In this document: in pieces, positions 2,300 through 53,482 of the stretch | Numbering within the stretch: the first letter of the stretch is position 1 | How the letters are laid out: each line of letters opens with the position of its first letter | Origin: Girardia tigrina | Taxonomy: Eukaryota | NCBI GenBank assembly: GCA_001938485.1 | Contig: MQRK01235089.1 | Coordinates: forward strand, 1-58,835 | DNA: 58,835 nucleotides | Reading direction: 5' to 3' | Notes under the pieces: model-generated | Told to the model about the DNA's origin: nothing | The model's database searches: none | What the model saw: the letters and a program-made list of their open reading frames with translations, nothing else | Translations under genes and position numbers: made by a program

Positions 2300-5131
2300 C
2301 AGGGCGTATTTACACACTGGGGGCCCATGACGGAAAATATTTGTGGGGGCCCTTGCAAACTCAGATTGATCATTTTCAAAAAAAGCACTTCTGTATACTG
2401 CGATGCCCACTCACAATGCTCAGATTACGCAGATGTGAATAACACAGATACAAAGTATATTGTGATAGATTCATAGTACATTCATACAGCACAGTAAAGC
2501 ATGCGGAAATCATGAAATGTTCATTACCAAAGGAACTCTGCGGGATTTGCTAGTGGAAAAATCACGGATAATGTCACTGAAGTCTATGTCTCTCAAAATG
2601 TCACTCTCAATGCTCATGAGTGTTAGGTTAGTGAGCCTGTCTTGAAGCATGGAGGTANNNNNNNNNNNNNNNNNNNNNNNNNNNNNNNNNNNNNNNNNNN
2701 NNNNNNNNNNNNNNNNNNNNNNNNNNNNNNNNNNNNNNNNNNNNNNNNNNNNNNNNNNNNNNNNNNNNNNNNNNACATTTTTTTGAAGAATGAGAGTGTA
2801 CATAAATTGCGCGAAGCTCTCTTCCACTTTCTTTTCACCTTCAAACACCTTGAGAAACTCTTGAAATTGGACCATTTCATCCCCAAGGCATGATTTCAAG
2901 TCATTTTGGTATGCGTTTGCAAGCGTATCTCCTGCTTCTTTGAGCCCTTGATGTTCAATCTGTGCAAAATTCGATAGGAAGCCAAACAGAGATGACACAT
3001 TGTCATAAGTAGAAAGTCTGCGTTTCAAAGCAGACACATAGCTATCAATCACCGGATTGAAGCATTCAACTTGAAATGTCTTCGAAGGCGTAAGTTGAGC
3101 CGCAGGAGCACGGGCATATTCCAATGGTATCAAGCGCACATTTTGGAATGTCTTACGGCCACTCTTATATTCCGTTGTGCCTGCCATTTCTGATGCCCTC
3201 TTTTCATAGTCACCATACTGCTCACGCTTATACTCGACAAACCTTGTTAGCGACTGCATACTCGCGACAGCAGTATTAATGTCAACATTGGGATTTTGCA
3301 GTGCTTTATTCGTTGCTTCTGTCCTTTGCAAAATGTCGTTCCAAAACAGAGCATAGATTGTAATCTCCAAAAGAAGCATGCGTTTATGGAGTCCAGTGGC
3401 TTTGCAACGCACCTCTTCTGGTTCACCCTTATCTTGTGCCATTTTATGTAGTGTATCTCTTATTTGTGAATAGCCGTTTACAAGAGCTTTGGTGGCATCA
3501 GCTCTACAAGACCAGCGTATGGCGATGAGCCTTTTAGGCACATGTTTTACCGCTCTCTGTTTCTTTCAATATGTCAGTAAGAATTTGAAAGCGGTGTGTT
3601 GAGTCAGTGAAAAAAACATATTACTCCTCAAGGAAATCAAAGAATTTCACCGCACTTAAGCAGCTTTTTGCAGCAGCTACTCCAACCAAATTTAGCGAAT
3701 GTGCAGCGCATGGTTGCCATAAAGCTAAGGGATTCAAAGCCNNNNNNNNNNNNNNNNNNNNNNNNNNNNNNNNNNNNNNNNNNNNNNNNNNNNNNNNNNN
3801 NNNNNNNNNNNNNNNNNNNNNNNNNNNNNNNNNNNNNNNNNNNNNNNNNNNNNNNNNNNNNNNNNNNNNNNNNNNNNNNNNNNNNNNNNNNNNNNNNNNN
3901 NNNNNNNNNNNNNNNNNNNNNNNNNNNNNNNNNNNNNNNNNNNNNNNNNNNNNNNNNNNNNNNNNNNNNNNNNNNNNNNNNNNNNNNNNNNNNNNNNNNN
4001 NNNNNNNNNNNNNNNNNNNNNNNNNNNNNNNNNNNNNNNNNNNNNNNNNNNNNNNNNNNNNNNNNNNNNNNNNNNNNNNATAGACAATGAGTAATATTTT
4101 GACTTCTTGATTCGCGAAACGATCTCTGCTAGTACTCGTTCTCCCATGACTTCAACAAGCTCTTCACAAACTATAGGTGACAGATAGTTTGTATGACCGC
4201 TTCCACAACTACGAAACCGATCAATGTGCTGCTTTAAAAAATCATCGTACTCTGCCAGAAGTTCTAGCAAGCCCAGATAGTTCCCATTAGAGGGAGATCC
4301 CACATCTATATTTTCACCGAAAAGAGCAAGACCCCGCTCACAACAGAACCTTATGACACTAAACAACCTTTTCAGGACTTTACGCGAGTACGTCGCCTCT
4401 CGCCCAACCTGTAACGCTAATTCAGTATCAATGCGGCCTTGTTCTTTAGCTCGCCGAGCGAGTGCCACAACAGCCTGCAGATATTCCTGAGACTTTTCAT
4501 GAGCACTCATTCTATAGCCATAGTGCTTCCAATCACAGAAACCTTCATCAGTGAAGCGAGATGAAGTTGCCCCCATAATTTTGCAAACAAAACAATACAA
4601 CTTGCCGTTTGAAGGTGAGAAACACACCCATGACCTTTGTTCTTCCTCACCATTTTGGTTCTGTCGTTCAAACATTCCCACATGACATCTGCGGTCACAA
4701 CCATCGACGTTTTGCACATATGATTTCTGCTGAAGAAGGGTTTCATCGCAATGCTGCACATCCTTTACACCTTTCTTAATCCAGAATTCCCCAGCAGATG
4801 ATGACAGGTTTTTAGGCCATAGACCAATATCCTTCTCTTTTAATGCAGAATCAGTACTATCGGAATACTGCATGACTTCCATCTGTGCAATAGTGTCTTT
4901 ATTACATTGTACCTCCACAGCTTCAATGACATGCTCACTAACATTTTCAGCAACTGTATCAGTAACGTCATGCACCTCACTGATTGCCACACTTTTAGCC
5001 ATGAAGTCAGTTATGCGTCGCGTTTTCGCCATTACAGCAGCCTCCTTCTCATCTTTTTCTTTGGCCCTTTTCCGCTTTCAGCACCACTGAGATATACACG
5101 AGGACATCTATGGCGATCACTATCCATAGAG
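2300..5131 (-). mobile_element. hAT DNA transposon (ZMYM1-like/TTF-finger transposase), one end missing
   Basis: Terminus CAGGGCGTA at 2300 with GGGGCCC subterminal motifs. The transposase on - has a TTF-type finger (RSWVCFSPSNGKLYCFVCK...GFCDWK), GNYLGLLELLA...YLSP, CAAHGC, RW and the hATC tail (TSMLQDRLTNLTLMSIES). No matching opposite TIR found. Confidence 0.9.
2510..5127 (-). pseudogene. hAT transposase, frameshifted and gapped
   Basis: ORFs 3734-5032 and 2510-3541, plus an upstream MDSDRHRCPRVYLSGAE start at 5127 that is frameshifted. Two N-gaps. Confidence 0.85.
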
Positions 5132-5424
5132 TGAGAAGAACGACTTTGAAAAATCCTTTAAAAACCGTTTTAAATATTTATCGACATTTTTGCATTATTT
5201 TAATTAATATAATGTAATTGTTAACTCTCTACAAAATATATTTTCACAAAGTAAGAAAATTTTTAAATAATACATCGATAGAAGAATTAAAAATCTTTTT
5301 CTCAAAAATTCTAAAAAATAATTTTAATTATTCAAATAATAACATTGAAGAATTAATTAACACAAATACATCAGAAATAGACAATCAAATACCTAATTTA
5401 ATTTCAAAAAATAATATTACTGAT

Positions 5425-6863
5425 TGGAGCGGAGAATTGCCAATTTGACCGAACATTTTTGCCAGTTTCAGAAATTTATAAATAAAACATATAATAAATT
5501 AAATAAATTAAAATAATTGAATGGATTAATTAAATAAATTGATTAAATGAATAAATATCTAAATATAAAAAAAATTAAATAAAAGAAAGACATTTAGGTT
5601 TTTTTTTAAATTGTCGAATTTCATAAAATTTCATTTGACAGAATTGTTTGTATTTTTGAGGTATTCGTGATAGTCAATCGATTGTTAAATGAAATCAAAT
5701 TATGTAATCACAATGTGATTAAATTAATTGTGAGCCTCATTAATTTTATTTTAATTATAATGAATGGAAAATTATTCTCTCCATGTAAGTATGTCTTTAT
5801 GTTTGCATGTTTGTTTGAATGTGGTTGCAGTGATTGCGTGTTAAGCGTGTCTTTGTTTGTATGATTGTGGTTGCGTCATTCTTTGTTTAATTTGAATGAG
5901 CCAATGGTGTGTTTCTTTTGTCTTGTCTGTGGTGTGAGGAGTCTATGTATGCGCAATGTATGATTTGTCTGTGTCGAGTTTTATGTGATTGGGTAAATTG
6001 GTTATGTGTGTGAGGAATTTTGTGCTTTGTCATAGGAATTTTGAATTTTAGTCACAATTAAAAAAAAGTTTCAATGTCAATTTCATTTTACTTAATAAAA
6101 TTTTATTTTCTAAAAAAGAAAATAATAATGAAAATGTTGGAATTCGGACCTGTAAGAGTAAAACCAGAGGAAACAATAGATGACCAAATCACCTGGGATT
6201 GTCAGTATAAGTCTTGTAAAGCAAAAAATGGTCCAAATAATTCTTATCGCAAAATTTGCGGACTTGAGAAATTGAATAGTGGAAAATACATCACACACGT
6301 TTATTGTTTTGAGAATAGCCGTCTTGAAAGTGTGTGGGTTTGCGGTGAGTGCACTGTGAGAAATAAAGTCGAAAACAATAAATCTGGTAAATTGAAATGT
6401 AGCACGTCTGAAATGTTTGCTGAGATTAAAATTTCTGTTCCTGAGATACAAAACAACCATCCTATAATCAATGATTTGAGTATCGATATGTCAAATAAGT
6501 GGGAGTATTCCCGTTGTCAATTCATGAATGAGCAGCAATTATTCACCTGTAAAGTGTGTTATGAAGTTAAAAGCCAATATAAAGATGAACAACTGAAAGT
6601 CATTTGTTCAGCCAATTTAAAATTGGTGCTTGAATCCATCATAACACCGATAAAGAGTGCGCTATCACTCGAAGTTTTCCCGGTAGATAAAGATGCGTGT
6701 CATCATTTTCTCGGTTGGGATATCGCCACATTTAAATTGCGTAAACGAGATGGGATTCCGCTGAATATTTTGTTCAATGAAATCAAAAGCACCTTTCAAC
6801 CGACATGCACAATGAGAAACATTTCTTCTCCCAAAATATCGTGGAGACACGGCTTCCTGTCCA
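5425..6863 (+). mobile_element. Unclassified 1439-bp TG...CA insertion with 5-bp TSD (CTGAT), carrying an NZF zinc-finger ORF
   Basis: CTGAT at 5420-5424 and 6864-6868. Ends TGGAGCGGA / TCCTGTCCA form an imperfect 9-bp IR. Removing the element and one TSD restores aatattactgatgaatct, which matches aatattgctgaagaatct in the intact RING gene. Confidence 0.8.
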
Positions 6864-6901
6864 CTGATGAATCTTGTTTTTGGATTACAAAACAAAATTA
6901 A
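6074..6901 (+). CDS. ORF with three degenerate RanBP2/NZF-type zinc fingers (element cargo; more likely start near 6128)
   Basis: W-x-C-x2/4-C-x3-N-x6-C-x2-C-like repeats: WDCQYKSCKAKNGPNNSYRKIC, WVCGECTVRN...CSTS, WEYSRCQFMNEQQLFTCKVC. Each has one Cys substituted. The ORF reads through the element end. Confidence 0.65.
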   Translation: MSISFYLIKFYFLKKKIIMKMLEFGPVRVKPEETIDDQITWDCQYKSCKAKNGPNNSYRKICGLEKLNSGKYITHVYCFENSRLESVWVCGECTVRNKVENNKSGKLKCSTSEMFAEIKISVPEIQNNHPIINDLSIDMSNKWEYSRCQFMNEQQLFTCKVCYEVKSQYKDEQLKVICSANLKLVLESIITPIKSALSLEVFPVDKDACHHFLGWDIATFKLRKRDGIPLNILFNEIKSTFQPTCTMRNISSPKISWRHGFLSTDESCFWITKQN

Positions 6902-7289
6902 AATATATACGTTTAATTTATTCTGCATAGGAAAACATCGACTTCAAATATATATTTATTCAAGAGATGTTCCCGAAATATAAAAACGTCTATAATTTGG
7001 ATATAAACACTTTTTTTATCAAAAAATATATTTCTGGAAGTTCTTTACTAATGGAATTTTACATTTGCAATTCGAATAAAAATATATTTGATTTAATAAA
7101 ATTTAGTAGATCTTTATATATTATCAAAATATAATCAGTCGGACGAAGCCAATAAATTCCAAAATGATCTTGAACAATGTGTGATTTATCGTGAAGATGT
7201 TAAGAATAAAAATATTTAATGGATTTGAAAACTATCATCACAAAATTTGTAATGAATGTAAATGGTTAATGAAAAAGAGATGACTGAAA

Positions 7290-8001
7290 CAGTGGCGTCG
7301 ATCTGTTTTCATNNNNNNNGGGGGGGGGCAAGGGCGAGATATGCAGATCGCATTTTTAGTTTGTTCGATTTCGCCTATTGATATCCTCGTGCTTACAAAA
7401 TCATACGGTATGATTTTACCTACTGGGGCCCAGTAACTGGGCCATAGTCACATACCACAATGTAAAAAAAAACAAAATCCAAATACTAACAATTTATTCT
7501 TTGTCCACAAATTTTTTAAGAAATTATAGCAAACGTCTTGCCACGAAGATCATTTTTCTGAATCAATTCATTAATCAACTCCTTCAATTGTAGGTTGTCC
7601 ACCTCATCGGGATATGTTGCAAGGATGAGAAGGTGATTCTTTCTCTCTTGAATCATGGTGCTTCTCATGCGAGTTTTAAGTTGGCTGAAAGAACGCTCGC
7701 CGGTTGCAGTTGAGCCTGGCAGACCAAATACAATTTTATGAGACGGACCACCTGCAGAATCATATGCGTCACTTAGCTGCTACCAATTTGCTTAATGATC
7801 TGCATGGGGATGGTAGTGATGTTTTCCTTTCCAGCAGGTTTTGATGATCCTCGCATAAAAATTATGAGTTCGTGAATGAATTGAAGGAAGTTACGCATAA
7901 GGGTAATGCAAATTATTGAGGGGGCGAAAAGATGCTCTTGCTCCATAAAATTAATATTGGGGGTCGGTAGCCCCTTCGCCCCCCCAAGATTGACGCCACT
8001 G
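7290..8001 (-). mobile_element. Non-autonomous hAT element
   Basis: 15-bp TIR CAGTGGCGTC(G/A)ATCT. Degenerate 8-bp TSD GACTGAAA/AACTGAGA. Internal hATC fragment on - (PGSTATGERSFSQLKTRMRSTMIQER). Confidence 0.9.
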
Positions 8002-8829
8002 AACTGAGACTTATGTTTGCGTGAACTCTTTTTATCAAAATAAAAAATAAATAAAAATATAAAACTGAACTTTAAAACTTTTAATGAATGTTAATTCAAA
8101 AACGGACGGAAAATGTATAAACAGATTACAACACGATTCAAAAGGAAATTAGTCTGTAAGAGAACTGATAACTAGTAAAATTACTTAGTCAATTAATGAT
8201 AGTTTCTTTATGACAAAATTTCTGTTGACAGCTTGATGAAGGACTTCTCCTTCCGCTTCGTATCGAAAATTTCTCGGAGTGGAAAGTTGAATTTGAATTA
8301 TAAAACGTGCAGCAAAAATAAAATAGATGTAGTGCGTATACTAATTGGCCGAATTCGAATTAAAATCTCATTGCCAAATAAGGTATAAAATAAAACCAGA
8401 AATAATATTTGTTATCGATTTTTAATTATCGATGTTGATATTAAAGTTCAGTTTTGAATTTTAATTTGTATTGCCTAGCGGCGAAATAATAAACAAATAA
8501 TTAAATATAATAATAACTAGACGTAAAAGTAATATAAATAATATTATATAATGCAAATATAAATAATAATAATATAAATAATGTTAACGATAAGCCTAAC
8601 ATAATAATAAATGATATCTTATTTAGGTAAAGATGATAATGTATTTACCATATATTAATATGAAATGAGCTAATATAAATAAGACGTTAAGCGTATAATA
8701 TAAATAATGTTAAATAATCTAAATAATATAAAAAACAATACAAATGATAATAATAAGTAATTAATAATTATTAATAAGAAATTTAAAGAATAATGGCAAA
8801 ATTTTATAATTAAGAACACCATTAAAATC

Positions 8830-8895
8830 AAATTTTATTGCAATATATTTCGGTGGATTTTCCACCATCTTCAGGCTGAATTAACAACAATTTCG
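8830..8895 (-). ncRNA. Minimal hammerhead ribozyme (PLE type), copy 1
   Basis: Minus strand reads GC-CUGAAGA-U-GGUGGA aaa UCCACC-GAAA-UAUAUU-GC-AAUAAA. This gives the core, stem II and a palindromic minimal stem III. Confidence 0.8.
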
Positions 8896-9603
8896 CTGTC
8901 TTATATATAGTAAATTGATGATTATGCACACATCTTGCATAATAACTAATTAAATATTTTCAACAAATTGGAAGTATGAGGGGTTAATTTTAATTTTTTA
9001 TCTCGCCTGAATAGTTTATTATTTTTTAATTTAAAGGGTAAAATATTTTTATATTAATTTGCTTGTTAAATATTTTTAAAAATTAANNNNNNNNNNNNNN
9101 NNNNNNNNNNNNNNNNNNNNNNNNNNNNNNNNNNNNAATTAAATTAAATTAACAGGAAAATTTGTTTTAGAAATGTGAATTGTTATATTAATAAAATTTT
9201 GGTGTTTAAAAAAAATGAATTCGGATATAGACGTTGCAACCACTTCTCACAGGAAGAGAGACTTGTTTGTACATTAATGGACGGATTATGTGATTTAATC
9301 AATCACAAGTAACTCTTTCCAAATATTTTTTAAAATTACTGCAAAATATTTTAAAATTAGTTGTTTTCACATCCGATTTACAACCCTTAATATGTCCAGC
9401 AATATTACTCCCATTACCCAATCGTCCATGCTCCTGAATCCGTTTACAGAGATGACGAGACGTCTCTCCAATATATGTAGCGTTGCCCCATTACACAAAA
9501 ATTGATAAACCAGATTGGAACATAAACTCAAAGGTGTACGAGATTTATTACTGAATATACTTTGAATTTTGTAAGATTAGAAATGATTTTTAAATTCAAA
9601 TTT

Positions 9604-10125
9604 TTACTTTGGACCAAATTTTAGTAAATCCAATTCATTTTTAGATAAAACAATTTTACTTAAATTTAAAACAGTATTTTCTACATTAAAATTACAAATT
9701 CCAAATAATTTTCTTAAATTGTTAAGTTTTTTATTTTGTGCAGTAATTTTATCATTAATTAATTTGTCGGAAATACTATCAGAAAATTCATTACATAATT
9801 GAAAGCAATAATCATCACTTACATTTCTAAGAGTAGCTTCAACTATTGTAAATTCATTCATCAGTTGACTTCTGTGTTTCTTTTCTAACTCGATCATTCT
9901 TCTCAGAATTTTTCTGTTAATTCTTCTAATATCCTCCATCAATAAGCAATCATGTAATTTTGATTTAAAAATGAAAGAAGGTATCATTTTTTCTTCATTG
10001 CACGCTTCAAGAAAATATAAATCCGCGTCTTTTCTTTTAAGAGAATTCATGATTTTCATATATCTCTTGAAAGGCTGCATTACATTACGATAATTCTTAA
10101 TAAGAAATTTAAAAAATAATGACAA
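9604..10125 (-). pseudogene. N-terminal part of Penelope-like ORF
   Basis: FLEACNEEKMIPSFI and NLSKIVLSKNELDLLKFG motifs. Truncated before RT. Confidence 0.8.
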
Positions 10126-10504
10126 AATTTTATAATTAAATAATTAAAAAAAATTAAAAAATTAATTAAAAAAAATTAAAAAAATTTATAATTAAACGTA
10201 ATTAAACGCAAAATTTTATAATTTTAAAAGTAAAACGGATTCAGTAGCATGGACGATTGGGTAATGGGAGTAATATTACTGGACATATTAAGGGTTGTAA
10301 ATCGGAGGTGAAAGGAAATAATTTTAAAATATTGTGCAGTAATTTTAAAAAATTGGGAAAGAGTTACTTGTGAGCATTATTGATTAAATCACTTAATCCG
10401 TCCATTAATGTACAAACAAGTCTCTCTTCCAATTTGTTGAAAATATTTAATTAGTTATTATGCAAGATGTTTGCATAATCATCAATTTGCTATATATAAG
10501 ACAG

Positions 10505-10570
10505 CGAAATTGTTGTTAATTCAGCCTGAAGATGGTGGAAAATCCACCGAAATATATTGCAATAAAATTT
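10505..10570 (+). ncRNA. Minimal hammerhead ribozyme (PLE type), copy 2
   Basis: CTGAAGA at 10526-10532, stem II GGTGGA/TCCACC, GAAA at 10549-10552, palindrome AATATATT at 10551-10558. Predicted cleavage after 10558. Confidence 0.8.
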
Positions 10571-11366
10571 GATTTTAATGGTGTTCTTAATTAATAATTA
10601 GTTACTAAAATAATATAAATAATAATAATAATTAAATAGTATAAATAAATAATTACATTACATTAAATTGTGTCATTACAGTTAACAAACTTTTTATCAT
10701 TTAATTGTCCACTTAAAAACCGTGAATGAAAGAAAAAAAACTTAAAATTAACTGATTTATCATACTTTTTCATTAACAAACTTTCAATATGTATTGAAGG
10801 ATATGATGGAAGACAATGTTCAAATAATTGAGTTTATAAATACTCGTTTTCTATTTATTATTAAAATTATTATTTTATTATTTAAATTATTTATTATTTA
10901 AATTATTAAAGATTAAAAATTATCAAAGTAAATCGAAAAGTCCTCATTTAAACTTTTTTTTACTGAGGACCATTTTTTAAGATTTAGATCTAATGTAATT
11001 AGATATCACAAAATTATCATTGCTGCTATCACAAGTTGTATGGATTTACCACAATCAAGTCAAGACAAATTAAAGGGGCTTCGAGGTATATCGCGTTTGT
11101 TTAAAATCGTCTGCTAATATATATTTTTATGAGAGTTTTATGAAAGAAATAATATTAACTGAGATTTCTTTTTTAAAAATTAACTTTGATAATATCGAGG
11201 AAAAATTCAAATTCTTCGAAGACCTAAAATCAAATCAATCATCAAATTATAAAGAATCGGAAATAGAAATTATTAGAAATTATTAGAATCGGAAATTACG
11301 GTTAATTGAATTCGGAGACATTGAAAGATTCGAATTTTCAAAACAGTCAACTATTTTAAAGATGTA

Positions 11367-12667
11367 CGTGGTTGAAGCATTAAGTCCCCGGACTAAGTAT
11401 ACAAGGGAAATCACAGGCATTTCATATATTCTACAAGTGATAACAAACATGTAAAGGTTTACTTCTCAATGTAAGAACCATTATTGGCCACGCACTTCTC
11501 CCAGCGTACCACTAATTTCGAAAACTCATCTTTGAAGAAGTTTGAGTCACATTCAGCAAAGAAATGCATAACTGCACCTCTCACTTCTTCATGGGATTTT
11601 AAGTTTTTGCCACGAATCGCCTTCTTCAGGTGCCAGAATAACCAAAAATCACTTGGCGCCAGGTCAGGACTGTATGTAGGCTGAGGGACAAGGTTGAAAC
11701 CTGCATCATCAATAGCCGCTGGGGAAAGGGCACTTTTGTGAATTGGTGCGTTGTATTGCAACAGCCACAGTGATGAGACTCTAAGCTTCGTATGCAGTGA
11801 TCTGGTCTCAGTATCAAGTGAGACATAGTAGGCGCTATTCAGTTTCACTGTTTTGTCTGCGAAATCCAGGTTTATGACACCATCACCGTCACAAAATACA
11901 GTCAGCATAAGACATCGCCGATGGTTTGTCCCGGACCTCATTTTCAGTGCTGGTTTTTCATTAGGAAGGCGCCATTCTGAAGATTATCTTTTGCTCTCGA
12001 TACATAGAGGCTTAGCGGTGTCTCATCAACAGTGACAATGTTGGATAGATATCGGTGTCCATGTTCTTGACACAAATTCTGGTTTCGTTGAGAACACTGC
12101 AAACGTGCCTCGCACATCTCTATCGACAGAAATCGTGGCACAAAGCGAGATGTCAGCTTCCTTATTCCAAGGGATTTCAACAACTCACGTGTTTTCCCTT
12201 CACTGATGTTCAAGCTAGCTCCAAGCGCCTTTACAGTGATTTTTCTCTCTGTTTTAATGATTTCCTCGCAACGTTTCTCTAATTTGTCTTGATCGATTTC
12301 CAGTGGTCGTCCTGGCCTCTCTTCATCAAAAAAATTTGTCCTTCTACGTTTAAACTGAGCAATCCAACTGTCCTTTTAGAGGGACAATTAATCATATAAT
12401 TATCCCTTAACTGTTTGATATTATCCTAGCTGTCTACCCTTCGTAGCACAAGAAATTTAATCACACTGCGATACTCAAACAGGATTCATTTTGAAAAATG
12501 ACGAAATGTGCGAAATTTTGTTTCAATGCCTGTAGAACACGTTAACATAATGATGCAATAAAACAAATTGCATTTTCATTACCTGTAGATATTATAGTTT
12601 AATCACAAAAAATCACTAAATTATATTTAATGCTTTCTATCCATTCCGGGAAATTGCGTCAACCAAA
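11367..12667 (-). mobile_element. Mariner (DD34D) element, full length but defective
   Basis: Imperfect TIRs (cgtggttgaagcattaagtccccgga / tccgggaaattgcgtcaacca) flanked by TA. Transposase motifs SRFVP, IVTVDET, YNAPIH, TYSPDLAPSDFWLF, RWEKCV...GSYIE. Contains stops and frameshifts. Confidence 0.93.
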
Positions 12668-13049
12668 TAAAAAATTGAAATTTCACTTACGGAATGAATA
12701 ATGACTTTAAAAAGTATTCGTCCTTTTCGATTAAACACAATTTCAAATGCTTTATAATTATCTTGTCAAAAATATATTTCCAAATTTTCATTTTAGTCTC
12801 GTTTTGTTCCTAATAAAATTAAAATTTGAAAAATCTTTGTCCTGTTTTTTTTATTTTTTTATTTCATTTGGAATTTAAAATGTTCGAATTTTGAGATATT
12901 CTTAGTCTTGGAATAATAATTTTCAATTATTTGTTTTTTGAGGCTTCAATATCGTTTGATTGTTTATGATCTCAAAAGAGAAAATTAGATAGTGGAGCGG
13001 AAACCGTACCTACACATTAAACTTAGAACTAGAAAACAGAGTTTTACTG

Positions 13050-14160
13050 ACGGGTTGTTGGACAATCGTTGTTGTACAACTACGTTCGGGCTACTCTTGT
13101 AGCAACTCATGCAGCAAGAGTGGACAGATCAATCACATTTGCTGAGATCCGCCCAGCATTGGTTGACCCAGACATGATGGAGAAGGATATAACTATTTAT
13201 ATATACTCTCACAGACTCATAAAAAGGAGAAATCTCTACGTTGGAAGCATCACTAATGAGTAAACCAATTAGGATCCCGGCCTGAGGAAGATGTATAAGA
13301 ATCATCCAAGGAAGGTGGTTCAATTTATTTTGAACAACACTATTGCAGACACCACACCGTCAACAGTGGCAATTTTGGAGCACTTTAGCTCCAAATCAAT
13401 CGCCCAACCGATCAGTGTCGAATCTGGGCCATTACCATAACTTGGCAGAAATTTGACATTGGGCCATGCAATAAACCCCGGTGTCGGTGCACAATCTTTT
13501 GGTGGGTGCTTTAGGAACTTTGTCGAAGAGGAGCACCGATATATTGACGAATCTAAAGATCCCACCAAAGGCGATACGACGAATAGAAATTGACTGCTCT
13601 GTATCAAATTTTAAATACTCGGCAGACAATGGACGAATCACCAGGATGGTTTGATCCTTAGTCCGACTCAGAGATTAAGAAAGATAGTGATAGAGGGCAT
13701 AGAACCTCAGGAATCGATGCTCATGACGGAGGAAAGGAATTATGAACATGCAGAGCCTAAGGACACCGGGGATTTTCATCCAACCACCCTGGATGCACTC
13801 CTACAAGCATACAACTTTAAGATTCGAGTGCAACAAGGGGTGAAAAAGATCAAGTCCAGGATAACGAATCACCTGACGACGAAGCACAAGTTTCCTTCTC
13901 ATATAGGAGGCGGGTGGGAGACCCATCATGGAAGGAAGAATTATCTTTCTATGATGAGTTGATAAGATGGTGAGTAGAAGTGTCGGGCTTGGTGGAAACG
14001 ATCACCCAATTGAAGGGTGCGGGGAAGGTCGCGAATAAAGAACCCCCGTGAAAGCCAGGGAACATGTTGAAGACGGCTTTGGCCCGAAACATGGTGCGAA
14101 TGAATTCATGTAACAACCGGGCGCTTTTGCTCACAGACAAAAAACTACTCGTTATTTATA
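13050..14160 (+). mobile_element. Degenerate RLE-type (R2/NeSL-like) non-LTR retrotransposon fragments
   Basis: GC-richer block. Translated pieces: MYKNHPRKVVQFIL (pre-RT region), VGALGTLSKRSTDILTNLKI (RLE tail), GDFHPTTL and IRVQQGVK (RT-like). Confidence 0.5.
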
Positions 14161-14699
14161 AGTAGATCTTTTTATGCTAATATTGTTCAGGAACTCCGAT
14201 GGGACCGCTTTGTGACAATTATGAGACCTTTAAAAGTTTTTTTTGATTAAATTTTTACATTATCATTTATTGCCATCGAAAATGAGTAAGTGTGGAAAGT
14301 TTGGAAAAAATTGATTGAGTAAAAGGCCTTCAAAAATAGGTTTCTAAATTTCATGGATATATATATATATATCTAATAAAAAGAATGTAAAAAAGAAATA
14401 TTGTTTTGAAAATTTTGTTTTGTTTATCTTTAGTGATAGAATCTGAAAATATTATTATAATCAATTTATATAATATAATTACACTGAAAGAGAAACATTT
14501 TATGACAGACAAAAAAGCTCTCGTAAACAGTCGCGACATTTAATAAAAATTGGCTAAACTGAGCTTTAGTTTATTAATTGTTTTAATGAATGCTTTTTCA
14601 TCCAGGAAATATAACGATACACATTAGCAGTTTCCAAGTCAACAAAATATGTGATATAAAAGGGAAATAAAGTGTCATATTTAATTGTTCTTTTAGCAG

Positions 14700-15087: not shown

Positions 15088-18000
15088 TTATTATATAATA
15101 TATAATATTAGGTTGTGAAGTTGAAACTTTTTAGGCATAATTACAATAAATAAAAATGGGTATAATTTGACAATGACTTCACATTTTATTTCTCAGTTTT
15201 TTGTTTGATTGCTACAAAAAATTAATTGAAATTATTGAACACTTGTTTTAATAATTAATACTTTAAAAACTGGAAAAGGTAGAAATTTAAACTATTATGA
15301 TTCACGATATATGAAGTATGAGTTCCTAGATAGAACCTCAACATCAGAAACCACGCGACACATCAATAGTGTATTTGGATACCACACTACTACGCAATAG
15401 AAGTCTCAAATTATTTCAGGAAATTCGTGAAAGGTAATTTTAAAGTTAATAACGAGTATCGTGTTGCCCAGGCAACGAAGAACTGAAGATAACCCTGGCG
15501 ACGGATCCATCACAAAGGGCTCATGATGGTTCGTTTGTGCTTAATGTCACCCGTTCTTCTTTCGTAGCTATTGTTATTGTCTTACCTCTTTGTCACGCTT
15601 CACATCGTTCAATTACTTCTTTTATTCTTTCATTGCGTTTGGTCATGTCGTATTTGTCTGCGATATTTTTTTATTAATTTCTCTGCACCTGGGTGTGATA
15701 ATAGTGTATGTATTCGTTTCATCATTTTTTCTCTCTTTTTCTGCAATCAAAATGAAAGCATTTGTCGATTCAAGAGCCTTTTTAACAACGAATAGTGACG
15801 CAAAATTGACAAAAGTTTGACCCTTCATTGTACCTTCAGTGAAATAAGTGACTTGAAATGATATACTGCTGACTCGCTAGATCAATCGGCAAAGCCGGCA
15901 TACAAACTAATTAAAACGTCTTTTGAAGCTTTTTTTGCCTATTTTATCTTTGCGTGATTTAAATATCTCGTTTATCGATATATCTAGATTTTTGTTATCT
16001 GGTAAGGGGATGTGATTTGACTCGGATAAACTCCATTCGATCTGATCAACAATATTGATTACTTCTTTCACTTTACCGAATCCTTCTTCAATAATACAGT
16101 ATGATGCACTTCTCTTCGATTTATTACTAATTTCCTTTAAAGATGAGATGGGTCTGAATGCAATATAGGATTTGCAATATTTTTTTCTCACAAATATTTC
16201 ATCTATAGAAATGGTTTCCTTCGGTTTATTGATAAATTTGTAATGAGATGCTGGATTAATCAAAGAAATTTTTTCCTCATTGAGTCTATTTGAAAAACCA
16301 TATCATTTCCTTCTTTGCTCTGTGATTTAGAAAATTTCGATTTTTTTTCTTTTTTTGAGTTCTGGAACATTAACTGCGATTTCGTTTAATAATTTATTTC
16401 GTCGACTTATCTCTTGCTAAATGACTATTAGATTTTTGCTAAAATCTGCTTCTTCTGACTGTCTCATAGGTGGAATTTTATCAGTTTTTTCTACTTTACG
16501 TAGTAATATAATTTAATTTACGCTGAAATTCTTATTAATATTTTTATTGTCTGAAAGACAATATACTTCAAAATTTTCAATATCATGATCATCAGCATCT
16601 ATTCTTCCGGATAAATGATAAACCGTCCTAAACGTCGCAAAACACCATTTCTTATTTCAGCTCCATAAACTAAAAATACAAACTGCATTCCGATTATGAC
16701 TGTTTTGTGTGTCTTACCAGTTTAAAAGAATTACTCGAAAATGATTATGACTAAATAATATTATTAATAAAAAAAATTTTATAAAAACAACCACGTTTTT
16801 CAAGCATTACCAATGCACTAAAAAGAGGAAAATAATTTTTTTTTCTAGACATGTGCGAAATTTTATTCCTAACCAAAAACGTGGGGCGGATTTCTGAATT
16901 ACTGCTATTAGTAACTGCTATTTCCTCTTTACTACTTTTTAGTAACAATCGATCATTTCTATTCCACACGTTTTTGGTTAGGTATAAAATTTCGCACATG
17001 TCTAGAAAAAAAATTATTTTCCTCTTTTTAGTACATTGGTAATGCTTGAAAAACGAGGTTGTTTTTATAAAAAATTTTTTATTAATAATATTATTTAACT
17101 ATTTTTAGTTATCATTTAGGAATTCAAATCTTTCGATTGATTTCAAATAACAGAAATGATAATAAAACCAAAATAACAAAGTTTTATTTTAATAAAAGCA
17201 AGTTTTATTTCAAAATAATTTTTCAACCTAATTTAATACTTCTACACTTAATTATCACTTGATTTTCACAATATTTGTTCAATTTATTATTTTTTTCCGT
17301 ACATCCGTAAAGTATTTGTTATAAAATATTGTATTGTCATCGGAAGCAAGCCTGTATAAAAAAATTCAGCTTAATTGGATGACTGAAAGTGGTCGAAAAA
17401 TCAATCGCAAGATTTGTTCCAGAAAGACAAACAGACAGACAAGAAACCAAGCTAAGAAAAACGTGGTAACGTGGTAAAAAATAGATTCAATTTCTGTGAA
17501 TGAAGGAAAGACGTACGTAAAGGTTGTAAAATGGACGAAATTAATGATATGTAAGAATTGGAAAATTTTACAATTCTTGATATTCTGGATGAATGGGAAA
17601 CTCACCTCTGAGATCTTTCTAGGAATTTTCAACCATCCGTTAATTATAATCGACTCAAAGTTTGTATCTAGACATTGAAGTTGAATGATGATGATTATTA
17701 CAAATTTGAAATCAAAAATGGAAAAGAACTTAACCAAAGATTCGATGATTTCATCCAATCGAGATCAAAAAAGATGAGTTGGAGAATCTTGACGAGTTTA
17801 GTGAGTTTGAATGAGGAGTTAACCAACCAAATAATGGATACAGATATAATGCCCTCGAAAACATCTATTTTAAATAGCGTTTAGTAAATTTTAGCTAATC
17901 TCAGTTTTCAGAATAAAAATTTATAAACTCCTTTTATTTTTATAAGACTTGCTTCATTTTTACTTAATTCAGTAACAGCAGTTTCAACTAGCATGAGAAA

Positions 18001-27000: not shown

Positions 27001-30000
27001 GGATTGTCACTAAACTACTGGATAAAATTTTCGGTCAGGAATACTTATATTGTGTTTGTAATGCTGTTTTTAAGATTGTGTTTCTCTCACCCAGATGGAA
27101 GATTGATATTTAAATATTTTGAACAATTTTGGACAATTTTAAAATTTAAACAACAACTTTAAATTAAATTAATATATTTTAACACGTTGACGGACAGTAG
27201 AAACATTAATACATATATTTTACATTTTAATGACGGCTATAGACGCAACTGTCCGTCAACGTGTTAATCAAAATATGTTAAATCTATTTAAAAATTATTT
27301 AAAATATTTTCATATTTGATAATAACTTTAAGGTTTATTTAATCATAAATGACATATTTTAAATGAATTATAAATCTTTTTTGCAAATAATTTAAAATTA
27401 TTGTAATTTAAATTTATTCGAATAATAAGAGGTTTAGAAGTAGAATGTAAAAAACCTCTCAATCAAGAACGATGTCTAGCTATGAAAGTTTTATGGAAAA
27501 TTGTCCTGGAGGCCATTCGACTGGAGGTATCAATAAAAGTAATGCAAATCATATTAGCGTTCTTAATACGGTCATTAATTTTTTAAAGTGATATTATCCA
27601 ACTGAAATCTCGAGGCTTTTGTGTTAATAAATGTTACAGTGAACTGTAAGTAATTGTTTTGTAAAACAGATATGTCATATAAGCATTGGAAAAGATGCCC
27701 AATAAAAACGGTATTGAAAACTAGGTGTTTGTACTCATAAATAAATAATGACGTGGTTTTTTATTTACTTATTGTTATTATTAGTTTGTCTGTAGCTGAA
27801 TCACATAATAAATGCAACATTATTTTAAATGAGGCTTAATAATTATTTATTTTTCAGTTTTTAATTCTATTGTTCACAGTTTTGGCCGCAATAATTGCCT
27901 ATACGACTCTTACTGCTGTTTTTAGACAAACTGTAAGTCGATAAATTTACGTTAATTTATATGTTGTATTCAAAATAATCATTATTTTAATCTTAAGAAT
28001 AATCATAGTTTGAACAATATTTTTATCATTACTTATTTATACTTTGGACCACGAAAGAAATAACTCAGATAAAATTGCAATGATAAACGTTTTTTTCAAT
28101 AGGTTTTATGTAAATTAAATCTATAAATTAAAAAATGTTCTTTATATATTAAATATTTCATTTAATATCACATTTCCTTCTTCTTGGGTTCCGCATAATT
28201 CTATTTGTGCAGCTTCTCTCATTTACCTGAAACGTGTTATTCTCATTTGTTCTCCACATTCATACACTGATCGGAGTTTTGTTTTCTCATTCTCATTTTC
28301 GGCTTCTATCACATCTTTCATCTAGTAGTAATTTTGTTGTATTTCCTTATTTGTCCTTTCGTGATGTAAAATAAATATCCAAACCTTATTAATTTTCCCG
28401 AGAATGAATTGTCTGACAAACTTATTTTACAATCCATGTGTTCCTTGATTTTAAACATCACTTTCCGCCAAGCTTGCATTTTTATATTCTTCTAGTGCTT
28501 GTCATATGTCGATTTATTTCTTTCAATCTGACCCCTTACATTTCTCGTGATGACTTCATTCGCATTAATTCAGAAAATTATTAGGAAGTAATTGAATTGG
28601 ATTCGTGGTTTTTGTCCAAATAACACTTCGTATGCATAACGTTTCGTAGTTTTTCAGTTTTGTCGTTTGTAATTTGAATACATTTTTCTTGAATATAAAT
28701 ATGATGAGTTAGTTAATTAACTTTTTGCTGACAAATTTTAATACTTAGGCTGTCTAATAAGTTCCCGGAATATGTCATGCACACACACATGCATACATGT
28801 ATACACATAAATATTGTATTAGAATGAAGCCATCAATCAGCTGCTTTGGTCAATCATAGAGTCACACACTTATCCACTTTCTTCTCATTGTGACAGCCCA
28901 TTATTGCTGCTAACACAGTGTAAGGTGCACCGTTGACACGTTTTGGATTTACAGAAAGAACATTTTCGTACATACATTTACTTAGAAATGCTACGGGGAC
29001 GTAAACCATGTGAAATATATAAGCAGCTGCTAGATACTAACCTAGATGTTTCTTCACAGACAACTGTATTCGAGTGGTACAAACGATTAAAAGAGGGAAG
29101 ACAATCCTTGGTTAATGATCCAAGATGCGGCCGCCCAACCACATCTTCAACCGCTGAAAATGTGCAGATTATCAAAGCGATTGTGGATGAAGAACCAAGA
29201 ACATCTCTTAGAGCAGTGAGTGAATCTACTGGCCTGTCTAAAGATACTGTTAGACAGATTTTCACAAATCAGCTTGAATTGCGAAAGATTTGTTCGACAT
29301 AGATTCCACGGTACCTCTCAGAAGCAAACAAACGGGACAGGATTTTATGTACACAAAGCATCATCGCCTTATTTGAAAACCATTCCATCGATTATCTGTT
29401 ACACCATTGGGCGACAGAGGACATTCATTTCGAGGGCAGAAATTCGTGGACGGTGAATACCTCAGTAATTTTAACAGGAGGTAGCTCCTGTTTCTTATAG
29501 GTACAACCTCCATATGGAGTGGACCTTTTATATTATGGCTATAGATAGCTTTATTTGTACAATCGACCAACAATTTGAAATGTGACAAAAATCCGAACCT
29601 ATTATAGGTTGAGAAACCTCCTCAATTACAAAATTCCACATATACCATCAACCTTCCAAACACAACTCTAACGGATAACAACCGAAAGTACGAATTAGTG
29701 AACCGTTAGCTGCTCTAACCGACAAAGCAGTATCATGAACTACATTATTAAAACAAAAAAAATTTGTTGGAACAACGGAAATAGCAGAACCCGTGTCTAT
29801 GAGAAATGGATTCTGCAAATTTTCAGGGCATACCGTAAACACCGAACAAATACATCCTCTACTAGTGTGATAGGGGATAGTACACTGAGTTTAAATTTTT
29901 CTTTGAATATGAACAAGGCAGGGAACATTTGAAAACCCGATCCCCGAAACGTGAATGGTAGTAACATAAACCATCTTTACTAATAACAGGGTTTGACGGG

Positions 30001-33000
30001 TGTCTCACATCTGAATTAATTGGCTGTCTCCATGCCTCAATTTTTTTCTCTAAAGAAACTATTTTATTATGTAAAGATCGGTTATCTTCCAAAATTTCAT
30101 CTAGTTTATCATCCAGACTAGATTGCCTCTTTTTGAACATCATGTTTCTCTTGTTTGGTTTATCTATGGATTGTATTGGGTGACATTTTCGAAAACACAT
30201 TCTGTCCGCTATTTCAGCTAAATGATCCAAATCTTGATCGTTTTTTTTACCAAAACAGATAGCGTAACAGACTATGCGATACCATACCATTAATTGATTT
30301 CAATTTCTGTTTTAATTCTCTCAACAAATCTGAAGGTCTGCGATCACCTAAATTTAAATTCCCAAAACAATCTTCAATAATCGAATCTTGAGAGACAGGA
30401 TAAAGTTTAGTCAACAATTCAGTTTGTCTAAAGGTTTCTTAGCGTTTTAAATGAGAGATAATTCTTCCCCTAGTTTATTTAATAGATGAACCGAAAGTTT
30501 ATTGATTATAAAGGAACATTGTTTAATCTCGTTAATTACACCATGGAACTTACATAAATTCAAACAGAGGTGAAACCAACCCCAAATGTTTAACGCAGAA
30601 TCGAAAAAAAAATCAGGCAAAAAAGAATATCTATCCTGTATGGGGAGAAAATCTCTATTTTTCTGATCAGATATCTTCTTCTGACAAACATTTATCGGTT
30701 AAAGTATCAAAAGTTTGTTTTTTTCGGGCCATTTTATAAAAATAATTATCCCACTTCTAACACCAATTGTAAAACTCAGTTAAATTAAAGATAACAGTAA
30801 TGTGACTGATTTTTACCTTTGATTATAGAAATCTCAGAAGTAACACTCGTAGTTTGTTTGATAATAATATAATGTTAAAAACAATTACAACGTACTATAT
30901 CACACTGGAAAACAAAATACAGTTCAAGCAGGATAAAAAAATAATAATGATATAACCTCACAATAACAATTACCAAATGGAGTACGGTACTCAATTATAT
31001 GAGAATATTGTCACGAGAAATCGTATGCGAATATTTATTCGGTGTATAACTTAGTTTTTTGGATTTTCTAAGAGATGGTGTAACCTTTGTAATAAGCATT
31101 ATTTTACAGTCGTACGTACAGATTTTTAAAGTGCTGAAATCGAGGCATTAAAATTAAGTNNNNNNNNNNNNNNNNNNNNNNCATAAACATATTTTTAATC
31201 ACGTTTTAGCATGACAACTTTCATACCAACAAAACAGCATTTGCGGGAAGCACTACTGTTTTGCTTTAATCAAAAGAAAAAAGTTGCAGACAGTTTTCGG
31301 CTTCTTGAAGAAACTTATGGTCAACATTCACCAACTCAACAGATTTGCGAGAACTGGTATAAACGTTTCAAAAGTGGATATTTCGACATAAGTGACAAAG
31401 AGCGTTCCGGTCAACCAAAAAGATTCGAAGATGAAGATTTGGAATCATTACTGAACGAAGATTCTACTCAAACAGAGAAAGAGCTTGCAAAACAGTTTAA
31501 TGTTACTCAAGCAGCCATAAGTAAACGTCTACATGCTATGAAAATGATTCAAAAAGAAGGAAAATGGATACCACANNNNNNNNNNNNNNNNNNNNNNNNN
31601 NNNNNNNNNNNNNNNNNNNNNNNNNNNNNNNNNNNNNNNNNNNNNNNNNNNNNNNNNNNNNNNNNNNNNNNNNNNNNNNNNNNNNNNNNNNNNNNNNNNN
31701 NNNNNNNNNNNNNNNNNNNNNNNNNNNNNNNNNNNNNNNNNNNNNNNNNNNNNNNNNNNNNNNNNNNNNNNNNNNNNNNNNNNNNNNNNNNNNNNNNNNN
31801 NNNNNNNNNNNNNNNNNNNNNNNNNNNNNNNNNNNNNNNNNNNNNNNNNNNNNNNNNNNNNNNNNNNNNNNNNNNNNNNNNNNNNNNNNNNNNNNNNNNN
31901 NNNNNNNNNNNNNNNNNNNNNNNNNNNNNNNNNNNNNNNNNNNNNNNNNNNNNNNNNNNNNNNNNNNNNNNNNNNNNNNNNNNNNNNNNNNNNNNNNNNN
32001 NNNNNNNNNNNNNNNNNNNNNNNNNNNNNNNNNNNNNTTCACCAGATTGTGCCCCATCAGATTATCATCTGTTCCGATCAATGCAAAGCGCTCTTCGGGA
32101 CCAGCATTTCAGAAACCAGGAACATATAAAAAAATGGCTGGAACAATGGATCGCATGAAAAGACCACAACTTTTTTTTCGATGGAATTCATAATTTGCCT
32201 GAAAGATGATCGAAAGTCATAATTAACGATGGAAAATATTTTGATTAGAATAAAACTTATTGTGTCATATAAATAAACTTGTCTGTTCTGCAAAAAATCC
32301 AAAAAACTAAGTTATACACCTAATATGAAAAATGTTTGGTAAATAATCAAATATAAAATGAATAAGGAGACCTGAAACAATTATGGTGTATTCAGGAATG
32401 TAATTGGTATAACCGGAAGGTATTGGTGCATAAAATTTGGTAGTAAAACGATAATAACTATTGTCTTGATCCGTTGCGTAAATAACCAATCTGCTCGCCA
32501 AAAAAATAATTTCGGAATGAATATTAGTATTTGTGATCATTATATTGATCCTTAATTAAATTCAAATTACTATTGGCAATATTGAATTTTATTATTATTA
32601 TTATTATTATTCATTCCGAAATATGCTGAGTTATTAACTCCGTATCACTAAACTGAAACTTATAAACCTTTCAAGGAAAATAAAAGAACAATCGCATAAC
32701 ACCAAAAAAAATAAAATAAAAAATAAGTAAAAATGTTACAAAAGCGTAAAAAACTGTCACACAATTAAATCAGATTTATATTAATCCAGAGTATAAAAAA
32801 TCACACATAAACTTAAAAATAACGAATATTACAAAAAAATTGCATTAAAAAATATCGAAAAAATAAAATGATAAATCTAATACAACATTTTATATAATTA
32901 AGTAGTATTGATTTTATTATATTTAAGACGAATTAAATTGTTTCACCAGCAAAAACAATCTTAATTTCATCTGTCATTGGGGTCGTCGGTCGTAAAAATT

Positions 33001-49600: not shown

Positions 49601-49774
49601 CAAAAATGTATAACTATTTTAAAACCACACAATGCATTTAGGTTTCAAAACAAAAAGTTGTTTCATTTTTAACTTCTTCAGTAAGATGAAATCTAGCAGA
49701 ATCGTATATTAAAAGTGATTTTGGCTTAAAAAAAAATTAACTGAAACACAAAAATGTTTTTAATTCAAGAAGAA

Positions 49775-50360: not shown

Positions 50361-50363
50361 ATA

Positions 50364-51871: not shown

Positions 51872-53482
51872 ATGGATGATATTGAATGTTCAATTTGTGT
51901 ATATCCTTTGACGGAGGCTTCAGAAACAGTGAAAATTGATACATGTCAACACATATTTTGTAATTATTGTTTACAAAAATGGTTACTTGAAAATCAAACT
52001 TGTCCTTTAGACCGAAATCCAGTCGTAAACGTAACAATATTTAGTAAATTACAGAACAAACATGAAACTCTTTCACTAAGCTCTTTCATTTCAGAAGCAA
52101 TATCGATTGAAAAAAGAATGACTTTCAAAAGTCATATCAAAATCATTTCAGAAATTTTATCAAATCTTTTACTTTTCTTCAATCAATATAATTTAATTTC
52201 AAACACTCTACAAGATACATTTTCACAAAGTAACAAAGAGAAATTTCAAATATTATTAAATATGAGTTCTTTTTCATCAAAAGAAGAATTTCAAGTCTTT
52301 TTCTCAAACATTCAAACAATTAATTGCGATTATTCAAATAATATTACTAATATTAAAAAAATAATTCTCACAAATATGACAGAAATAAAGAATGAAATAC
52401 ACAAAATTACTTTTATTTATCGAAAAAATATTGCTGAAGAATCTTTGCTGTTGGATTACACGAAAGAATTAAAATATTTGTACGCAATTTATTATATCTT
52501 TGGAGATATCGACTTCCATTTCTGCAGGATCCAAAATATATTATCGAATTATAAATCATACATCAATTTAGATGTAGTCGACTTATTTACAAAAAAAATA
52601 TTTCTGAGAGCTCTTTATGAACAAATGGAATTTACCATTTGTAAATCGAATAAAACAATATTTGATTATATAAAATTTAGTAAATCGTTATATCTTTTTA
52701 TATTATCAAAGTATAATGAGTCGGACGAGGCCAATATATTCCAGCATGATACTGAACAATGTTTGATTTGTTGTGAAAATGTTAAGAAAAAAAATACAAA
52801 TGAATTCGAAAACTGTCATCACAAAATTTGTAATAAGTGTAAAAAGTTTAAAAATTTTTTATCATTTAATTGTCCATTTAAAAATTGTGAAGGAAAAAAG
52901 AATAATTCAGAGCAGAAAACTTATTTATCATCTTTTTTATTACAAGATGATAAAGATTTATTGATTATGTTTCAGAACATGATGGAAGACAATAATCAAA
53001 TCATTAAGTATATAAATAGTCGTCTTTCATTAAATATGTATAAAGACAAATCTGAGCATCTTAATTTTAACAATTCAAGTTTTAATCAGTTTTTCGAAGA
53101 TCATTTATTAAAATATAAAAATCATAAAATTAATTATCATAAAAACTTCATTGTTGTTTGGAGAAGTTGGAAGAATTCGCCCCACTCGAGTCAAGATAAA
53201 ACAGAGATACTTCATAATTTGTTGGACAAATGTGTTTATTTGTCAGGAGCGATCATCAATTTCCTGGGAGAAATGGTAGAATTCGAGTTAAAATTTTTAA
53301 GTATTGAATTTGATAGTATCGACGAAAAAATCGATTTTTTTCGGAAACAAAAATCCCGTCGATGTTCAAAATATACAAAATTTATGGCTATAGTTAACGC
53401 GATTCTGAACATCTGGATAAAGGAAAACTTACAATACCCTCAAATATATAAAACATTAAAAGAATTAAAATTTCACCTATGA
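51872..53482 (+). CDS. Intronless double-RING-finger protein (putative E3 ubiquitin ligase), 536 aa
   Basis: Uninterrupted ORF in very AT-rich DNA. RING1 is CSIC...CQHIFCNYC...CPLDR. RING2 is CLIC...CHHKICNKC...CPFKNC. AATAAA follows the stop. Confidence 0.88.
   Translation: MDDIECSICVYPLTEASETVKIDTCQHIFCNYCLQKWLLENQTCPLDRNPVVNVTIFSKLQNKHETLSLSSFISEAISIEKRMTFKSHIKIISEILSNLLLFFNQYNLISNTLQDTFSQSNKEKFQILLNMSSFSSKEEFQVFFSNIQTINCDYSNNITNIKKIILTNMTEIKNEIHKITFIYRKNIAEESLLLDYTKELKYLYAIYYIFGDIDFHFCRIQNILSNYKSYINLDVVDLFTKKIFLRALYEQMEFTICKSNKTIFDYIKFSKSLYLFILSKYNESDEANIFQHDTEQCLICCENVKKKNTNEFENCHHKICNKCKKFKNFLSFNCPFKNCEGKKNNSEQKTYLSSFLLQDDKDLLIMFQNMMEDNNQIIKYINSRLSLNMYKDKSEHLNFNNSSFNQFFEDHLLKYKNHKINYHKNFIVVWRSWKNSPHSSQDKTEILHNLLDKCVYLSGAIINFLGEMVEFELKFLSIEFDSIDEKIDFFRKQKSRRCSKYTKFMAIVNAILNIWIKENLQYPQIYKTLKELKFHL

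Follow-up and report, generated by a model that had tools for sequence, protein, structure and literature searches.

The window, a 58,835-nucleotide stretch of DNA from Girardia tigrina, contains an intact RING gene and a broken RING copy, the latter interrupted by a mobile element whose open reading frame (ORF) includes three zinc finger-like segments. The features discussed below are as follows.

5136..5424 (+): RING pseudogene, part left of the insertion, recognized by similarity to the intact paralogue
5420..5424 (+): CTGAT, target site duplication on the left of the element, from the sequence and the paralogue alignment
5425..6863 (+): mobile element, 1439 bp, TG..CA, with loose contig ends at 5425 and 6863
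5425..5458 (+): 5' cap common to very many copies with other interiors, with a depth peak in bin 5390-5467
5459..5620 (+): A+T-rich stretch (87% A+T) containing two TATAAA (5477 and 5564) and several AATAAA, motifs that occur frequently in sequence of this composition
5785..6118 (+): G+T-rich stretch, beginning GTAAGT and ending AG after a pyrimidine run
6128..6901 (+): ORF from an ATG at 6128 or 6134, with no stop inside the element and a stop 13 codons into the flank
6150..6560 (+): zinc finger block, most likely captured, 411 bp, in frame, missing from the P0004 type
6194..6259 (+): RanBP2/NZF-like finger 1, lacking one cysteine, with its first cysteines separated by four residues and K-A in place of TF
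6335..6409 (+): RanBP2/NZF-like finger 2, lacking one cysteine and reading T-V in place of TF
6500..6559 (+): RanBP2/NZF-like finger 3, lacking one cysteine and reading Q-F in place of TF, with a weak TAB2 NZF likeness
6561..6863 (+): 3' part common to the whole family, with a frame open over 101 codons and a ferredoxin-like fold predicted at low confidence
6864..6868 (+): CTGAT, target site duplication on the right of the element, from the sequence and the paralogue alignment
6864..7262 (+): RING pseudogene, part right of the insertion, continuing at 10680-11090
51872..53482 (+): intact RING paralogue, single exon, 536 aa, supplying the empty site near 52434

The element begins with TGGA at 5425 and ends with TCCA at 6863. 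The inverted identity of its ends is 4/4, 7/10, and 8/40 bases, and the element has no terminal inverted repeat (TIR) beyond the 7/10 bases. Its flanks are 70-75% identical to the RING gene at 51872-53482. When joined with one CTGAT, these flanks align to the paralogue ungapped at the site (score 345), whereas keeping both CTGAT copies opens a 5-base gap against the paralogue (score 330). By base composition, the chance of a CTGAT duplication is ~0.001. In addition, contigs from two public runs, X1 and X2, span both junctions with 0-4 differences, at depths of 93-120 (X1) and 49-64 (X2). Thus, the insertion is not an assembly artefact. An earlier note on this DNA considered the boundaries to be well defined by the empty site of the paralogue, and both the alignment scores and the junction contigs of the two runs bear this out, the 5-bp duplication having been verified against an empty site at one locus only, 5425-6863. 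The same note was also right that the element has no transposase or integrase of its own, as six-frame reading and Pfam gave no match within it.

The intact RING gene encodes an N-terminal RING and a second RING-like finger, and it may itself be retrocopied or element-borne. The broken copy (5136-5424, 6864-7262, and 10680-11090) is interrupted by several insertions, and an X1 flank depth of 200-1,000 together with joints from 5339 and 5392 to 6874 point to several more RING paralogues. On its left, this pseudogene is cut by 2510-5135 (-), a stretch of long frames that resembles a hAT-type transposase by eye, has no Pfam match, and is very deep at its end in X1 and X2. A short hAT-like element at ~7290-8000 has CAGTGGCGTC as its inverted ends, and 7519-7779 gives a weak match for hAT dimerisation (E 0.00075). 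Three long inverted repeats in the window (8807-10593, 168 bp, 99%; 16752-17097, a 346-bp palindrome; and 47993-49586, ~560 bp, 82%) are likely TIR elements or MITEs, the last being bracketed by an exact direct repeat of 39 bp (47910 and 49736). Mariner-type fragments lie at 11459-12375, 28937-29302, and 31036-32325 (Pfam matches at 11462-11983 and 28937-29299), while LTR-retrotransposon-type fragments lie at 44319-46185, 49745-50482, and 54654-56007 (by Pfam, an integrase zinc finger at 49745-50479 and a weak RNase H-like match at 45718-46185). None of the Mariner-type and LTR-type fragments in the window has the ends of the element, and a second copy of the element was not found within the 58,835 nucleotides. 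The first nine bases of the element, TGGAGCGGA, recur at 12993-13001 (+) and 33055-33063 (-), in both cases after TAG, giving three matches in the window versus 0.08 expected (0/100 shuffles). The two additional sites are possibly ends or primer sites of related elements; local alignment of the element to them scored no higher than background, and a search for partner ends combining a matching duplication with a similar terminus found none. Directly after the site at 12993, a G+C-richer broken coding stretch (13000-14200) looks by eye like a fragment of a non-LTR retrotransposon and has no Pfam match. No exact database record was found for the proteins of the window, including the RING paralogue.

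Approximately 245 codons of the ORF lie inside the element. The protein searches, in which phmmer against 1.84 billion proteins returned four matches, yielded only P0003, P0004, and P0005, plus P0006 as a chance match. Like the ORF of the window, P0003 and P0004 read out of the same element end into unrelated residues. Since the frame leaves the 3' end without a stop, the unit is suggested to be part of something longer. The zinc fingers had been described as the only coding content, which is incorrect, as ~100 more open codons follow them and run out of the end of the element. Of 20,000 shuffles, 120 left 6560-6862 open throughout, and four interior length differences preserve the frame: the 411 bp, a single codon at the 5' joint, a single codon near the end, and 216 bp in an X4 contig. 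All 21 amino-acid differences between the window and P0004 are single-base changes, 19 of them transitions, and by their pattern these differences look like drift rather than selection. A 2-letter insertion at 6830 breaks the frame in X1 and X5 contigs, and it should be noted that P0003 and P0004 were detected because their frames are open. Low-depth RNA contigs of X5 match parts of the ORF, which does not in itself demonstrate transcription.

A model of the 3' domain, built from three sequences (pLDDT 53), adopts a ferredoxin-like fold. Its best match had a Z of 8.1 and an rmsd of 2.6 with 81 aligned residues, the matches being only commonplace ferredoxin-like folds, and Foldseek gave no match at E 0.001 with this model. 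An assignment of function from the model was dropped, as only commonplace folds matched it. On the minus strand of the 3' part, a slight resemblance by eye to a hAT catalytic motif was dropped for lack of a Pfam match. A metagenome scan with the 3' domain passed 1 of 167 pattern matches (L001), which was taken as chance, since its DNA is G+C-rich and bacterial in appearance and only 27 residues align, at 48% identity. The viral collection had no match to the 3' domain (0/600), the fingers (0/63), or either end of the element; neither end was found in prokaryote genomes, and phage records gave no match.

Upstream of this domain, the pattern W-x-C-x(2-4)-C-x3-N-x(6+)-C-x2-C is found three times, with one cysteine missing from each finger in the window copy. 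P0005, a protein of 672 aa without a useful name, matches all three fingers in order at its residues 432-551 (E 8e-14, 25% identity); it contains at least 10 fingers and does not contain the 3' domain of the element. Pfam zf-RanBP (PF00641) recognized finger 2 alone (E 0.0047) at 16.6/27 bits, which is under the cut-off, and had no match when the whole ORF was the query. Finger 3 resembled the TAB2 NZF at E 0.16-0.2. The Atlas score for a RanBP2/NZF-type finger was 0.85, which serves as a lead only, and Atlas returned nothing for P0005. Thus, the earlier identification of three NZF/RanBP2 fingers stands as far as the threefold pattern and its collinearity with P0005 are concerned, but each finger is short of one cysteine, and the zf-RanBP profile, which had been proposed as a check, detects finger 2 below its cut-off and the entire ORF not at all. 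Among the differences listed (40/142), other copies retain four cysteines in fingers 2 and 3, and, within the same listed subset (40/142), finger 1 has all four only in a diverged X4 record. The window copy is decayed. The predicted structure of the fingers was unusable (pLDDT 45).

With regard to function, the residues used by ZRANB2-type RNA-binding fingers are not evident in the fingers of the element. The earlier note had also raised a possible ubiquitin-binding module. Ubiquitin-binding NZF domains of the Npl4 type have Thr-Phe/Tyr after the second cysteine and a hydrophobic residue ~10 further, according to the available part of PMC12805371. The Thr-Phe/Tyr motif is absent from all three fingers (K-A, T-V, and Q-F), and because one cysteine is missing per finger as well, ubiquitin binding by this copy is not supported. 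For the family as a whole, we consider ubiquitin binding by the fingers unlikely, though credible, and unsupported.

The evidence for such a family comes from the assembled contigs of 4 of 15 listed public runs (X1, X2, X4, and X5), which were aligned to positions 5000-7312 with a threshold of 80% likeness. Contig records lose their match exactly before 5425 in X1 (40 records), X2 (46), X4 (15), and X5 (2), and 24 further X2 records match from 5424. At the opposite end, 26 X1, 11 X4, and 3 X5 records lose their match exactly behind 6863, among the rows listed. The sequences beyond both ends are unrelated between records (agreement 0.41-0.70). Because many unrelated flanks adjoin exactly both ends in public runs, we conclude that the element belongs to a high-copy family with conserved termini, as the earlier note had anticipated. 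The summed depth in X1 is ~680,000 in bin 5390-5467 with the 5' end, 188,000-635,000 over 6560-6871, and 600-34,000 inside the element, compared with ~100 for the locus-specific junction contigs; summed depth is not copy number and is inflated by overlapping contigs, and we take it as a family size of hundreds to thousands of ends. Depth over the fingers is 1,769 in X1 and about 590-710 in X2, corresponding to roughly 10-20 copies of the finger-bearing type. The copies agree over ~34 bp at their 5' end and over 130-300 bp at their 3' end, while their interiors vary. Loose ends behind 5458 were present in 10 records of X1 and 14 of X2, and 5425-5458 is likely the integrase attachment end. One X1 contig returns from 6863 to 6656 (depth 222), like a copy inserted into another copy.

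The interior of the element is modular, with sharp joints to other sequence in the run contigs at 5458, 6561, 6686, 6730, and 6768. P0004 matches the 3' 100 codons at 77% identity and has no fingers, and its N-terminal residues resemble those just ahead of the fingers. An X1 joint from 6142 to 6561 represents the same finger-less type, finger-less records in the run contigs begin at 6561, and this type appears to connect 6149 directly with 6561. The element was correctly described as carrying cargo; the finger block is in frame and absent from the P0004 type. In P0003, ankyrin repeats precede a segment that resembles the final 45-50 codons of the element, and this likeness ends exactly where the element does; accordingly, 6730-6863 is also common to this ankyrin type, and the joint at 6730 is present in X4 and X5 records. 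P0003 is known as a protein only, and its ankyrins may lie outside the element, in a host gene beside a truncated copy.

Diverged, donor-like records match 6438-6566 (X1 and X2) or 6175-6566 (X4) and then continue into other sequence, which in one X4 record apparently runs into a further finger, as read by eye. Since these records continue past 6566 and P0005 matches the fingers in order, 6150-6560 most likely derives by capture from a longer gene with multiple fingers, present in few copies in X1 and X2, where the depth of the likely donor gene is 221 and 167, respectively. P0005 is a relative of this donor and not the donor itself. At the 3' joint, six bases are common to the donor-like records, which end at 6566, and the finger-less records, which start at 6561; at the 5' joint, ~9 bases are in common, based on one X4 record and one X1 joint. 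Separately, X4 record 21, from another organism, is a diverged multi-finger sequence ~300-500x deeper than single-looking contigs, and its depth would reflect high expression of a gene in an RNA run or a high-copy element in a DNA run.

Between the 5' cap and the ORF are two stretches of biased composition. By its motifs, 5459-5620 is a possible promoter or polyadenylation region, and 5785-6118 is a possible 5' UTR intron. One X4 contig (depth 5.4) connects 5722 to 6119 with 14 other letters between them, although that X4 is RNA is a guess. Within the finger block, 6318-6349 contains six A-to-G differences in 32 bp (6/10 adenines) relative to all other copies listed, a cluster with a probability below 0.004 over the element at a 2-5% background. 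Four of the six sites face C in predicted local hairpins, and RNA folds were no better than shuffles (z 0.69 for 6250-6450 and -0.20 for 6730-6863). The cluster may reflect RNA editing before reverse transcription, hairpin correction, or an assembly error, and X1 and X2 are unable to confirm it because contigs drop rare variants. Just upstream of the 5' end, the X2 group of 24 records has a purine-rich majority (agreement 0.46). This purine run is not present in the four groups at 5425, and the other groups are plain A+T; it has a 7-mer in common with the start of the element itself and may be a local duplication. Behind 6863, no primer-binding site is present in the majority letters of the 3 rows listed (X1, 26 records; X4, 11; X5, 3), a further 449 loose-end rows lying outside the listing.

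Taken together, we consider it somewhat better than an even chance that the element is a solo LTR with a domain-capturing ORF that begins within it. Its TG..CA termini, its 5-bp duplication, and its dispersed copies with the same two ends are all features of solo LTRs. Target duplications are 3-6 bp for LTR elements, 4 bp for Ginger1, 4-5 bp for Ginger2, and 6 bp for Polinton and IS3EU/GingerRoot, as given in the accessible portions of PMC10045372 and PMC6839031. Thus, the termini and the duplication both fit the retroviral-type integrase to which they were originally attributed, and the open 3' frame favors the solo LTR, as it suggests that the unit belongs to something longer. The A-to-G cluster and the X2 purine run are two weak hints that agree with this reading. 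A full-length LTR retrotransposon would have been inserted by a retroviral-type integrase, with an ORF that starts inside the LTR and would continue into the internal region. Reverse transcriptase would have changed template at shared stretches of ~9 bp (5' joint) and ~6 bp (3' joint) onto another transcript and back, thereby adding three fingers as an N-terminal module. The finger-bearing LTR type would then have spread to roughly 10-20 copies, and LTR-LTR recombination would have left the solo copy, with decay since then. The ankyrin-bearing type would have arisen likewise at another joint. On the element's protein, the most likely role of the fingers would be that of a tag for binding proteins, less likely RNA, and canonical ubiquitin binding would not be expected. 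No full-length copy, internal region, integrase, reverse transcriptase, or paired LTR was seen.

It is unlikely, yet credible, that the element is instead a non-autonomous cut-and-paste DNA element with short unequal ends, moved by an integrase-like transposase in trans, in which case the 1.4-kb unit would itself be mobile and the capture Pack-TIR-like. In the run contigs both ends are similarly abundant and interiors vary, and no common internal sequence is visible behind 6863 among the rows listed, as this reading would have it; Dictyostelium TDD elements combine 5-bp duplications with TG..CA ends (PMC2836005, available part). The joints do not decide between it and the solo LTR, because both capture routes show microhomology: template switching at short shared sequences is the route of LTR-mediated capture in the excerpt of PMC5131818, and such sequences are also typical of capture by DNA transposons, with microhomology at one or more joints in 67.6% of Pack-TIRs (PMC8277862, in the portion available). 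However, the element has no TIR (8/40) and begins TGGAG rather than TGTNR, the stop-less frame exits the end in three copies as if part of a longer unit, and the upstream purine run of X2 and the A-to-G cluster also speak against a DNA element. We regard as improbable a more radical version, in which undescribed TIR-less units that are not LTRs are moved by a retroviral-type integrase at hundreds to thousands of copies and serve as domain shuttles with a promoter and a stop-less frame, having fingers, ankyrins, or nothing swapped in frame. If this were true, each insertion could fuse a binding module to downstream sequence.

Quite improbable, in our view, is a collapsed non-autonomous retroelement, in which captured sequence would lie between the outer end of a 5' LTR and an outer portion of a 3' LTR, as a result of deletion or template switching, with a helper element copying the unit. 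That only 34 bp (5') and 130-300 bp (3') are family-wide, with several sharp joints, would suit such a structure, and captured pieces between discontinuous LTR parts are a published pattern (PMC5131818, as excerpted). Yet the element contains neither an internal direct repeat fit to be an R region nor a primer site, and the finger-less type appears to run directly from 6149 to 6561. Chance boundaries, an assembly artefact, or a fragment of a SINE, Helitron, or non-LTR element are barely credible. Matching 5-mers do occur by chance at 18 of the 15,293 TGGA..TCCA pairs in the window, but the paralogue has an empty site, junction contigs exist in two runs, and loose ends fall at both exact coordinates. 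Helitrons are not known to make a target duplication. A SINE identity was dropped, as the element has no tRNA or Rfam match, and the absence of a tail further argues against this group of fragments.

For comparison with known systems, we draw on the available parts of the cited sources. Of the three classes originally offered (solo LTR, deleted giant gypsy, and Ginger-like DNA element), the solo LTR fits best and Ginger fails, for want of TGTNR termini and TIRs of 40-300 bp. Like solo LTRs of Gypsy, BEL, and Copia, the element has TG..CA, a 5-bp duplication, very short inverted ends, a similar length, many copies, and a variable interior between conserved ends; unlike them, it has ~245 ORF codons, a captured domain block, and a stop-less exit at its 3' end. 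Planarian Burro giant gypsy elements exceed 30 kb (PMC11410931) and are present in thousands of copies with ankyrin, BIR, MATH, and SUMO-like domains, a cargo tied to ubiquitination and apoptosis (PMC6431247). Compared by description only, Burro cargo resides in the internal polyprotein or accessory ORFs, and RanBP2-type fingers are not listed in the portion of PMC6431247 at hand.

Ginger1 and Ginger2/TDD are similar to the element in TG..CA and an integrase-type duplication (5 bp in TDD-4 and TDD-5), and their extra domains, OTU and Ulp1, are tied to ubiquitin or SUMO (PMC2836005, in part). Ginger1 has TGTNR termini, 40-270-bp TIRs, and a 4-bp CCGG/CCGT duplication, whereas the element has TGGAG, 8/40 inverted identity, and a 5-bp CTGAT; Ginger2/TDD has TGTNR termini, 45-297-bp TIRs, and a duplication of 4 bp in animals and 5 bp in Dictyostelium, such that the termini and TIRs differ from those of the element and the 5-bp duplication fits only the Dictyostelium elements (PMC2836005, same excerpt). 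Without real TIRs or TGTNR termini, the element does not qualify as a Ginger transposon. The 6-bp duplication, 100-150-bp TIRs, and mostly TA..TA ends of IS3EU/GingerRoot are also not those of the element (PMC10045372 and PMC6839031, in part). Pack-TIRs and GingerRoot share captured gene fragments and microhomology at joints with it, but both have TIRs (PMC8277862 and PMC6839031, in part). Repbase sorts non-autonomous DNA elements by ends and duplication (PMC4455052, in part), and the family may already be catalogued in Repbase/Dfam without its cargo being described. Among the titles listed in a literature search, there was none on RanBP2-type fingers in a mobile element or on an ORF starting in an LTR. 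If the unit is not an LTR, it would represent an unrecognised integrase-driven family.

Gene capture by LTR elements and DNA transposons is already known, and by analogy the element appears to work like gene capture by an LTR element. P0005 has the fingers of the element in the same order and spacing. As in LTR-mediated retroposition (PMC5131818, available part), there is a partial gene fragment, short shared sequences at both joints, and later amplification. In fruit flies, however, the fragments replace internal sequence between LTR parts, whereas the block of the element is in frame inside a putative LTR, and capture inside the LTR is not among the fruit-fly cases in the accessible text of PMC5131818. 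Thus, if the solo LTR reading is true, the novelty would be that the terminal repeat itself took up the captured sequence, in frame with an ORF running across the end of the element. The LTR would place the captured domain at both ends of new insertions and leave it at every solo site, thereby seeding the genome with promoter-plus-domain cassettes. With several joints in one family, the capture mechanism is testable, and the family would be a place to watch a retroelement trying host binding domains such as fingers and ankyrins.
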